Positions 59,377 through 61,402 of a DNA stretch of 64,000 bases are shown here, one piece after another. The translations under genes were made by a program, and so were the position numbers. The DNA is taken from contig CAZIYE010000001.1 of assembly GCA_964543385.1 (NCBI GenBank), positions 127,143 to 191,142 of the forward strand. Direction: 5' to 3'. Below the pieces are notes generated by a model. It did not search any database. It worked only from the letters and a program-made list of their open reading frames with translations, and was not told where the DNA came from. Each line of letters opens with the position of its first letter. Position 1 is the first letter of the stretch. This stretch comes from an uncultured Candidatus Saccharibacteria bacterium. GTDB taxonomy: Bacteria; Patescibacteriota; UBA1384; XYA2-FULL-43-10; 1-14-0-10-43-13.

Positions 59377-59931
59377 TTAAAATCCATTTCCAACTCTAAA
59401 TGTCATTTTATATGTACTTGTAGGACCATATGTAGTATTTACGCCGCTATCACTGGCATCATCCCAATCATCACTATTATTATCTACAACATTCTCTAGC
59501 TTTGCATATATAGATGTAAGGGTTGTACTAGCCCTAAACATATATCTATATAATCCAGTGTTTATTGGATCTTTCATTTCACGTGGCAAGGTGCCGTCAT
59601 TAACAAGACCAGTACAAAGAGATTCATAAGGAGCATAATTGTAATTGAAAAATCCCCCAGTGCCAGTGCCAGCAGAGCCATAGCCAAATATCACATAAGT
59701 CCCTGTTCTTTCATGATTTCTGACTTGGAGCGCTTTAAATATTTGTCTCAAATCACTCTTACGGACAGTGTCTCTGGCTTTAGATGTTTGATTTGTATAA
59801 CCTACAACACTCACAGCAGCTAATATGCCGATGATAACTATTACTATTATAAGTTCTACAAGTGTAAAACCCTTTGATTTCTTAAACATTATCCCCTCCG
59901 ATATGTGTACAGAAATATTATACCTCAACAA
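59377..59931 (-). CDS. type IV pilin-like protein (prepilin N-terminal methylation domain), copy 1
   Basis: KGFTLVELIIVIVIIGILAAV class III signal. It is identical to copy 2 except for the last roughly 25 residues. Confidence 0.7.
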   Translation of the reverse strand: MLRYNISVHISEGIMFKKSKGFTLVELIIVIVIIGILAAVSVVGYTNQTSKARDTVRKSDLRQIFKALQVRNHERTGTYVIFGYGSAGTGTGGFFNYNYAPYESLCTGLVNDGTLPREMKDPINTGLYRYMFRASTTLTSIYAKLENVVDNNSDDWDDASDSGVNTTYGPTSTYKMTFRVGNGF

Positions 59932-60105
59932 CCTTGTTTCTGGAAGTAAGCCCCTTGATTACCCTTATAGAACTCTTTGGTATCTTATAATAATTTGACA
60001 ACGCATCTATTACTTCTAAACTGGCTTCACCTCGAAAAGGTTTTCCCTTAACCCAAACCTTCAAACTACCATCATTATTCTTATCGACTTTAGCTATTTT
60101 TGCAT
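59918..60105 (-). pseudogene. truncated duplicate of the DUF167 (YggU-like) gene
   Basis: A 3' fragment identical to 60730..60917 of the intact DUF167 gene, lacking a start codon (ATG CAA AAA TAG). It is a by-product of the tandem duplication. Confidence 0.5.
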
Positions 60106-60188
60106 ATCTAGCCCTACTTTCTCTTGGAGAAAGTATAGATCAACTCTGCTCTATAATTGCATATCTACAAGAATCATAAATTCTACAG

Positions 60189-60743
60189 TTAGAATCCATT
60201 CCCAATTCTAAAATTCATTTTGAAGCTGCTTGCAGGACCGTAACCTGTATATGCACCACTAGAGCTAGCATCATCCCAATCATCACTATTATTATCTACA
60301 ACATTCTCTAGCTTTGCATATATAGATGTAAGGGTTGTACTAGCCCTAAACATATATCTATATAATCCAGTGTTTATTGGATCTTTCATTTCACGTGGCA
60401 AGGTGCCGTCATTAACAAGACCAGTACAAAGAGATTCATAAGGAGCATAATTGTAATTGAAAAATCCCCCAGTGCCAGTGCCAGCAGAGCCATAGCCAAA
60501 TATCACATAAGTCCCTGTTCTTTCATGATTTCTGACTTGGAGCGCTTTAAATATTTGTCTCAAATCACTCTTACGGACAGTGTCTCTGGCTTTAGATGTT
60601 TGATTTGTATAACCTACAACACTCACAGCAGCTAATATGCCGATGATAACTATTACTATTATAAGTTCTACAAGTGTAAAACCCTTTGATTTCTTAAACA
60701 TTATCCCCTCCGATATGTGTACAGAAATATTATACCTCAACAA
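60189..60743 (-). CDS. type IV pilin-like protein, copy 2
   Basis: Same as copy 1 for about 160 aa, with a diverged C-terminus. Confidence 0.7.
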   Translation of the reverse strand: MLRYNISVHISEGIMFKKSKGFTLVELIIVIVIIGILAAVSVVGYTNQTSKARDTVRKSDLRQIFKALQVRNHERTGTYVIFGYGSAGTGTGGFFNYNYAPYESLCTGLVNDGTLPREMKDPINTGLYRYMFRASTTLTSIYAKLENVVDNNSDDWDDASSSGAYTGYGPASSFKMNFRIGNGF

Positions 60744-60945
60744 CCTTGTTTCTGGAAGTAAGCCCCTTGATTACCCTTATAGAACTCTTTGGTATCTTAT
60801 AATAATTTGACAACGCATCTATTACTTCTAAACTGGCTTCACCTCGAAAAGGTTTTCCCTTAACCCAAACCTTCAAACTACCATCATTATTCTTATCGAC
60901 TTTAGCTATTTTTGCATTTGGGATTACTCGAATATCTATTTTCAT
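60730..60945 (-). CDS. DUF167 (YggU/UPF0235) family protein
   Basis: 71 aa; MKIDIRVIPNAKI...VWVKGKPFRGEA pattern. Confidence 0.5.
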   Translation of the reverse strand: MKIDIRVIPNAKIAKVDKNNDGSLKVWVKGKPFRGEASLEVIDALSNYYKIPKSSIRVIKGLTSRNKVVEV

Positions 60946-60946
60946 A

Positions 60947-61402
60947 TTAGACTGCCTGTTTTATTTTTGCCTGTTCATCCAGCGCTTCATTCACGAGCCT
61001 ATCAGCATCGGTATTTTCTTCTCTAGGAATATGGACAAACGAAATATTTAAGTGCATTTGATCAATCATCAACTTGATTTCGGCTACAAAAGCTTTGAGA
61101 CGATCTTCTTTGATTTTCCAATTACCATTAATCTGTTCCACGACCAGCTTTGAGTCTAGTCGACAAATTACCTTTTTATCGGCGATATTATTTTCCTCGA
61201 ACCATTTACTCTTGACCAATATTTCAAGCGCTTTAACTATTGCTTTGTATTCAGCCTCATTGTTCGTCCCTTCACCGACATACTGTTTATATTCATGAAT
61301 TATCCCGCCATTAGCATCGCTAAAAACAACACCTATGCCTGCAGGCCCGGGATTTCCTCGTGAACCACCATCCGTATTTATATACAATTTATCCATTTGC
61401 AA
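60947..61402 (-). CDS. rnhA: ribonuclease HI
   Basis: DGGSRGNPGPAG and the DEDD catalytic residues (TNNEAEYKA ... D). Confidence 0.8.
   Translation of the reverse strand: MQMDKLYINTDGGSRGNPGPAGIGVVFSDANGGIIHEYKQYVGEGTNNEAEYKAIVKALEILVKSKWFEENNIADKKVICRLDSKLVVEQINGNWKIKEDRLKAFVAEIKLMIDQMHLNISFVHIPREENTDADRLVNEALDEQAKIKQAV

Follow-up and report, generated by a model that had tools for sequence, protein, structure and literature searches.

Tandem type IV pilin genes with diverged 3' tails and probable allelic mosaicism in an uncultivated Patescibacterium

Two complete, co-oriented prepilin genes were found in direct tandem, with a period of 812 bp, in a 64-kb stretch of DNA from an uncultivated, ultra-small Patescibacterium (the window, meaning the whole stretch that was analysed; GC content 38.7%). 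Every gene across 55981-63957 lies on the minus strand, with assignments backed by Pfam, and the pilin pair is placed between a DUF167 (YggU-like) gene and the gene for isoleucyl-tRNA synthetase (IleRS). The repeat was measured base by base at offset 812. The features of the pair, in the direction of transcription, are as follows.

60945-60730, minus strand: intact DUF167 (YggU-like) gene, 71 aa; Pfam PF02594, E 5e-17
60268-60917, no strand: perfect repeat block, copy B, 650/650 against 59456-60105
60729-60734 (TATAAT) and 60705-60711 (GGAGGGG), minus strand: signals of copy 2, read from the sequence
60701-60189, minus strand: pilin copy 2 (upstream copy), 170-aa prepilin with tail 2, ...SSGAYTGYGPASSFKMNFRIGNGF; open reading frame (ORF) and Pfam N_methyl
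60189-60267, minus strand: variable tail 2 (last 25 codons and stop of copy 2), 55/79 against tail 1
60188-60106, minus strand: junction of 83 nt from the stop codon of copy 2 to the DUF167 remnant; sequence comparison
60105-59918, minus strand: DUF167 (YggU-like) remnant; alignment to the intact DUF167 and translation
59456-60105, no strand: perfect repeat block, copy A, 650/650 against 60268-60917
59917-59922 (TATAAT) and 59893-59899 (GGAGGGG), minus strand: signals of copy 1, read from the sequence
59889-59377, minus strand: pilin copy 1 (downstream copy), 170-aa prepilin with tail 1, ...DSGVNTTYGPTSTYKMTFRVGNGF; ORF and Pfam PF07963 N_methyl, E 3.9e-9
59377-59455, minus strand: variable tail 1 (last 25 codons and stop of copy 1), 55/79 against tail 2

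Block A contains the 188-nt 3' remnant of DUF167, a 28-nt spacer with TATAAT and GGAGGGG, and pilin codons 1 to ∼144; in block B the corresponding 188 nt are the final part of the intact DUF167 gene. Along with the ribosome-binding site (RBS), the 650 bp encode the leader (7 residues), the helix for polymerisation and the core of the globular domain. Read in the direction of the genes, the block stops abruptly on its 5' side at DUF167 nt 28/29 and gives way on its 3' side to a diverged tail of 79 bp. All of the differences (24/24) are confined to the last 79 of the 729 repeat positions, a distribution for which chance is no explanation. The DUF167 remnant keeps 188/216 nt and is without the first 28 nt and the start codon; its translation has a stop upstream and no in-frame start ahead of an internal TTG. 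An original prediction, made from the sequence of the window, had placed a tandem pilin repeat here, with a truncated DUF167 remnant and a last ∼80 bp of ∼70% identity. The repeat was borne out with its period of 812 bp, the remnant is real (59918-60105, 188/216 nt) and the divergent end measures 79 bp at 55/79 (69.6%), with both quoted peptides correct. Two of its figures were revised. The ∼730 bp of nucleotide identity comprise an identical block of 650 bp, 729 bp being the block plus the diverged tail, and the 184-aa genes are ORFs that open at a TTG inside DUF167, with the likely ATG 14 codons downstream and a product of 170 aa.

The prepilins start MFKKSKG, followed by FTLVE..., and GGAGGGG lies 3 nt upstream of the ATG. 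Public gene calls P0001 (identical to copy 1) and P0121 (equal to copy 2) are both 170 aa, belong to the same 90% cluster and come from the same 671,273-bp NCBI contig. A class III signal peptide is present (MFKKSKG before FTLVELIIVIVIIGILAAV), with a short basic leader that ends in Gly and is followed by Phe+1 and Glu+5 in a hydrophobic stretch. The PF07963 match (E 3.9e-9) is above the curated cut-off, and a profile prepared from 68 homologues matched Geopilin, GspG, Thermus PilA4, Neisseria PilE and S. sanguinis PilE1, all with solved structures. In the AlphaFold2 model (pLDDT 81) residues 10-62 form a helix that is followed by strands, giving the long helix and small beta-sheet of the pilin 'lollipop'. 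The best named relatives of the tryptophanyl-tRNA synthetase (TrpRS) encoded nearby are from 'Candidatus Berkelbacteria' and 'Patescibacteria group' genomes. From these features the repeated pair was assigned as type IV prepilins of a type IV pilus cluster in a Patescibacteria (Candidate Phyla Radiation, CPR; Berkelbacteria-like) genome. The TATAAT sites are predicted to act as promoters for both copies.

The two proteins are identical over residues 1-146 and differ at 9 positions, all between 147 and 166, with tail-specific stretches ...SDSGVNTTYGPTSTYK and ...SSSGAYTGYGPASSFK. In the model, variable residues 147-163 are located in and after an acidic loop (140-149, pLDDT below 50) and are followed by a conserved terminal strand (164-167, motif FR[VI]GNGF). 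Surface exposure of the variable tail residues, as the original prediction had it, is plausible from this model.

At the DNA level the tails are strongly diverged. Among the 26 tail codons 9 have synonymous changes only and 9 have amino-acid changes, and the method of Nei and Gojobori (NG86) gave dN 0.23 and dS 2.08, with dN/dS about 0.1. The 24 substitutions comprise T>C (6), A>T (4), C>T (3), A>G (3) and others, with no adenine bias. The TrpRS, RNase H and DUF167 genes of the nearest sister species have 73-77% DNA identity to those of the window, with saturated dS. The differences between the tails have the look of long-standing alleles kept under purifying selection and not of fresh diversification, and tail 2 and the 83 nt that follow it can be assigned to a pilin lineage diverged like a different species. 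A plain tandem duplication predicts identical 3' ends, so the 162-nt piece between the blocks (in-frame tail plus 83 nt) indicates that a second pilin allele was involved. Since 650 bp are unchanged beside a tail of species-level divergence, the structure is a recombination mosaic, which duplication and point mutation cannot give. The identity of the 650 bp, broken upstream gene included, further implies that the last duplication or conversion event was very recent.

A second copy of tail 2 was found neither in the window nor in the related loci or viral contigs. Neither tail 2 nor the junction gave exact matches in the viral contigs, in which no relative of the pilin was found. For the junction, no significant similarity was obtained to the repeat unit, DUF167, the DNA 3' of copy 1, the window or any related locus; local alignments were judged against shuffled sequences and scored no better. 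The junction contains a hairpin (ACTTTCTC-CAA-GAGAAAGT), the fold of which was no better than those of shuffles. The coding strand has the 11-mer TAGATATGCAA in two places, at 60157-60167 inside the junction and at 60100-60110 across the breakpoint between junction and DUF167 remnant. This repeat was not significant against shuffles; it could be microhomology in the joining event.

Relatives of the pilin were scarce, with only a handful among ∼15 billion proteins. A conspecific contig (L001, JGI 3300045131, 1,970 bp) has one pilin gene and neither DUF167 remnant nor junction, and its tail is 100% identical to tail 1. It is the same as the window over 977 nt upstream (61559-60583, as far as pilin nt 119) and over 734 nt downstream (59514-58781), whereas pilin nt 120-378 are replaced, with ∼nt 120-310 only 48-80% identical to the window. 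The replaced segment covers the C-terminal half of the helix and the alpha-beta loop. Its donor at the DNA level was not the sister species, which is excluded by an identity of 43-64%. With zero substitutions in 1.7 kb of flanks, yet a different copy number and a different central segment, recombination at this locus outpaces point mutation. In the pilin gene at least two variable segments, the tail and this central part, have been exchanged independently.

Synteny of RNase H, DUF167 and pilin is kept in L001, L002, L035 and L037-L039. In the sister-species group represented by L038 an orthologue (A, 61% identical) is followed by an unlike pilin type (B, ending NWRAGGFE), and this locus is 99.8-100% stable over five contigs. 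In a third species (L035) A and B are followed by the start of a third pilin gene. When L035 and L038 were compared, the flanks were ∼90% identical and DNA homology ended ∼119 nt into the pilin gene, after the KARD motif. This boundary coincides with the point at which L001 departs from the window, which points to a recombination boundary common to these cases, where the conserved helix-coding region ends. The interval from DUF167 to IleRS is best described as a pilin array, the content of which turns over between lineages.

Taken together, these data make it likely that the locus is a strain-specific tandem type IV pilin duplication combined with allelic mosaicism. Recombination-driven variation had been proposed in the original prediction. 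The mosaic part of that proposal stands, given the 650-bp identity beside a tail with dS ∼2 and the exchange in L001; a dedicated Neisseria-like system is not supported, the copies being complete, silent fragments being absent from the ∼72 kb searched and a G-quadruplex (G4) motif from the window. As to how the pair arose, the favoured route, held tentatively and at a little short of an even chance, is recombination, either unequal or illegitimate with the help of homology, with DNA of a strain that had the tail-2 allele. One end would have been anchored by homology and the other joined illegitimately at DUF167 nt 29. A recent import is favoured because no other A-A pair is known and because the junction is without homology to the DNA 3' of copy 1. 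DprA and RecR are encoded within the window. Ongoing gene conversion between the copies, also raised in the original prediction, is possible and would be indistinguishable from a recent duplication with an imported tail.

An older origin was considered rather unlikely. Here the tandem duplication would be old and under concerted evolution, the tails and 3' flanks having diverged while the first 650 bp, DUF167 remnant included, were homogenised by recurrent gene conversion, and L001 would be a deletion derivative. The sharp identity boundary and the saturated tail divergence are what would result if conversion always stopped at one point, homology ends (DUF167 nt 29) just where the identical block has its left edge, and a deletion between the 650-bp direct repeats would leave the layout of L001 with tail 1 retained. 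However, no A-A pair was found in the other sampled lineages, the conspecific having one copy and the sister species A+B, and the absence of substitutions in the 1.7 kb flanks of L001 makes the difference in copy number very young. The L001 allele is also no simple deletion product, as its central segment differs, and no homology to the DNA 3' of copy 1 can be traced in the 83-nt junction.

The assembly itself was checked with Logan k-mer assemblies of three short-read runs (SRR12261223, SRR12261226 and SRR12261227). Two contigs with identical TrpRS (L041 and L042; SRR12261227 and SRR12261223) both end at 60888, and two with identical IleRS (L043 and L044; SRR12261227 and SRR12261226) both start at 59485. 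Both break points are exactly 30 nt inside the 650-bp block. This is the position at which a graph with k=31, which we take to be the k-mer size of Logan, halts where two different sequences enter or leave. The breaks at both repeat edges therefore show that branch points are present in the raw reads. A branch at DUF167 nt 28/29 needs a second sequence before the block, which the junction supplies, and once the junction is included, upstream-block-tail 2-junction-block-tail 1-downstream is the sole linear path. The duplication is thus probably real and no assembly artefact, and the possibility of a single copy, which the original prediction had left standing, is largely answered by independent assemblies that branch at both edges.

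An artefact would require that co-occurring tail 1 and tail 2 alleles had been wrongly joined and that the true genome has a single pilin gene, and this was judged very improbable. The genome is metagenome-derived, a single-copy haplotype is known from another sample, the 650-bp perfect repeat exceeds typical short-read inserts, and the Logan assemblies stop at both repeat edges and do not span them. A mixture of alleles accounts for the branch at the tail edge but fails for the branch at DUF167 nt 28/29, where contigs of two runs end at exactly the same point, and a novel 83-nt junction joined to a DUF167 remnant cannot come from mis-traversal of the graph.

Least probable of the alternatives is programmed antigenic or phase variation of the Neisseria pilE/pilS or Moraxella type, with the tails as cassettes swapped from a silent store: a constant 5' region does adjoin a variable 3' cassette, L001 shows a second variable segment, conserved coding motifs (KARD, TLPREMKDP, DDWDDA, GNGF) bound the segments as possible recombination anchors, and DprA and RecR are in the window, but pilin copies that are partial or lack a promoter are absent from the 64-kb window and from the 8.4 kb beyond, the copies are direct and complete with no invertase or recombinase among the repeat-flanking genes, the tails are anciently diverged and under purifying selection, their substitution pattern is not like that of a diversity-generating retroelement (DGR), no G-quadruplex motif occurs anywhere in the window, and the sister-species locus is 99.8-100% stable in five contigs. 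Silent cassettes, a search for which had been proposed in the original prediction, were looked for with pilins, tails and junction as tblastn and blastn queries, and none was found in the 64-kb window or in L041 (∼72 kb in total). G-quadruplexes were searched on both strands of the window with the regular expression G3+N1-7 x4, with no match. A DGR target was rejected, as the mismatches have no template-adenine bias and half of the changed codons are synonymous; the neighbouring 'RVT_3' match is a 151-aa RNase H-fold protein and no reverse transcriptase. An invertible layout of the Moraxella tfpQ/I-Piv type was rejected as well, with the copies direct, no significant inverted repeats around them and no recombinase among the flanking genes. 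A dedicated programmed variation system is not supported.

Several points weigh against the tandem duplication with allelic mosaicism, or limit it. Conspecific haplotypes number one (L001 only). A scan of genome contigs and two scans of metagenome contigs gave no close relatives, and no contig was matched exactly by the 170-aa pilin, by P0001 or by a 35-aa tail-2 fragment. The donor of tail 2 and the junction was absent from every collection searched. The Logan contigs give branch points without the sequence of the junction, and the three runs are probably from the same samples as the NCBI genome, which makes them an independent assembly of the same sample. Copy number, whether two, more than two or a mixture of one- and two-copy cells, is not readable from the assembly. 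A simple sigma-70 scan gave no complete promoter upstream of either copy, with no -35 match. The pilus cluster has several other pilin genes, so the duplicated gene is only a candidate major subunit.

The remaining features of the region are as follows.

63957-63382 and 63358-62525, minus strand: two further pilin-like genes (191 aa and 277 aa, respectively); Pfam N_methyl matches
62441-61452, minus strand: TrpRS; Pfam
61402-60947, minus strand: RNase H-fold gene; Pfam
59376-58930, minus strand: spacer of 448 nt from pilin copy 1 to IleRS; identical in L001
58929-55981, minus strand: IleRS; Pfam

The pilin-like pair at 62525-63957 was assigned to the edge of a type IV pilus cluster that runs past the end of the window. 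Two Logan contigs (L041 and L045), 100% identical to the window over 3,113 nt, extend past this end and encode PilO, PilB (MshEN and T2SSE), PilT, PilC (T2SSF), two more pilins, PilD (Peptidase_A24) and further pilin-like genes. The prepilin peptidase, the assembly ATPase and the platform protein are all encoded in the genome. Beside pilC, at 5516-6016 of L041, is a 166-aa pilin with a nearly identical N-terminus (MLKKSKGFTLVELIIVIVIIGILAAV) and a C-terminal half rich in Thr, Pro and Ala. This pilin is an alternative candidate for the major subunit.

On the other side of the pair, 227 nt directly 3' of copy 1 (59150-59376) are lineage-specific, being the same in L001 and without a counterpart in the sister species, which has a second, different pilin gene (ending NWRAGGFE) at this place. 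The 227 nt may be a leftover from the loss of such a gene. From 59149 downward ∼80% conservation with the sister species begins, and 58930-59149 is a conserved IleRS leader. No Rfam match was obtained for the leader even at E ≤ 1 and no T-box was recognisable in it; it may represent a type of leader not described before. At 59277-59292, 85 nt 3' of pilin copy 1, is a GC-rich palindrome (TGCCTGCCGGCAGGCA), perfect over 16 nt, for which the roles of terminator stem and of protein-binding site are both conceivable. The RNA fold around the palindrome and in the region 3' of copy 1 was no more stable than those of shuffles, and no intrinsic terminator pattern was found. Across the 64-kb window there were no tRNA genes and no Rfam families at gathering score. 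Elsewhere in the window, at 17291-24970 on the minus strand, two large ORFs (1107 aa and 852 aa) have coupling-protein domains of the VirD4/TraG/TrwB type; with neighbouring ORFs (958 and 351 aa, no Pfam match) they may form a conjugation-like type IV secretion region of Patescibacteria.

Tandem pilin paralogues and mosaic pilin alleles are already well known in cultivated bacteria, and the present locus was compared with three such cases. In Neisseria, pilE is accompanied by many promoterless silent pilS copies without the 5' region, and a G-quadruplex lies upstream of pilE. As in pilE-pilS, the window has a constant 5' region, variable 3' segments bounded by conserved motifs and mosaic alleles made by recombination; unlike in Neisseria, both copies are full genes with their own RBS, and the ∼72 kb contain no silent fragments and no G4. 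Mosaic pilin alleles at strain level are found in the pilA groups of Pseudomonas aeruginosa, the fimA serogroups of Dichelobacter nodosus and Acinetobacter pilA. These pilins have a conserved N-terminal helix and exchanged central (alpha-beta loop) and C-terminal regions, usually with one pilA per locus. The comparison of the window with L001, with zero changes in 1.7 kb of flanks and a replaced central segment, is of this kind, whereas the perfect tandem pair sets the window apart from these loci. The third case, and the closest parallel that has been characterised, is Streptococcus sanguinis, in which each strain has two or three pilin genes and both proteins are stochastically arranged in one filament (PMC4832360; PMC10628169). 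Like pilE1 and pilE2, the genes of the window are complete type IVa prepilin genes that lie side by side in one orientation, share leader and N-terminal region and have their diversity mainly in the C-terminal part, and copy number varies between strains (here 1 or 2). Unlike them, they are DNA-identical over 650 bp, broken upstream gene included, with only 9 residues differing. S. sanguinis is moreover a Firmicute, whereas the organism here is an uncultivated Patescibacterium, for which expression and co-assembly are predicted.

Expression of both genes would be expected, as the same upstream signals are duplicated, and transcripts of copy 2 could continue into copy 1. As the two prepilins share leader and assembly helix, both would be processed by the same PilD and be assembled into one mixed filament. 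The two genes thus probably encode co-assembling pilin isoforms similar to PilE1 and PilE2 of S. sanguinis. A mixed filament would show two surface chemistries, which could serve in host attachment or in evasion of pilus-dependent phage. As perfect direct repeats, the 650-bp blocks would be a substrate for RecA, and recombination between them would delete tail 2, leaving a single tail-1 gene, or expand the array, the copy number of which is expected to be unstable. That the site is a contingency locus, at which transformation imports cassettes from co-occurring strains and RecA-dependent expansion or collapse switches between one- and two-isoform pili, is a speculative extension to which we give little credence. 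If true, specificity for host or phage would be retuned faster than a single point substitution arises in the surrounding 1.7 kb.

Passages of a study of Saccharibacteria (PMC11623550) describe type IV pili as the best-supported means of host-cell attachment in Patescibacteria, and report for Saccharibacteria (TM7x) that pili are near-universal and mediate host binding and that the globular regions of the pilins are poorly conserved and diversifying. Tandem pilin duplication is not mentioned in the searched passages of that study. Saccharibacteria (TM7x) and the present organism are of the same superphylum and of different classes, and the function of the pilin described here is predicted. The pair, from an uncultivated Patescibacterium, is a real but fairly ordinary case of the recombination-driven mosaicism and copy-number turnover that genes for pilus subunits typically show. 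It also illustrates a problem of assembly, in that perfect 650-bp repeats break short-read graphs at genes of this kind. For the organism, the pilin that is displayed may bear on the host range of a strain and on its exposure to pilus-dependent phage, and the locus is useful as a strain marker and as a candidate determinant of specificity.

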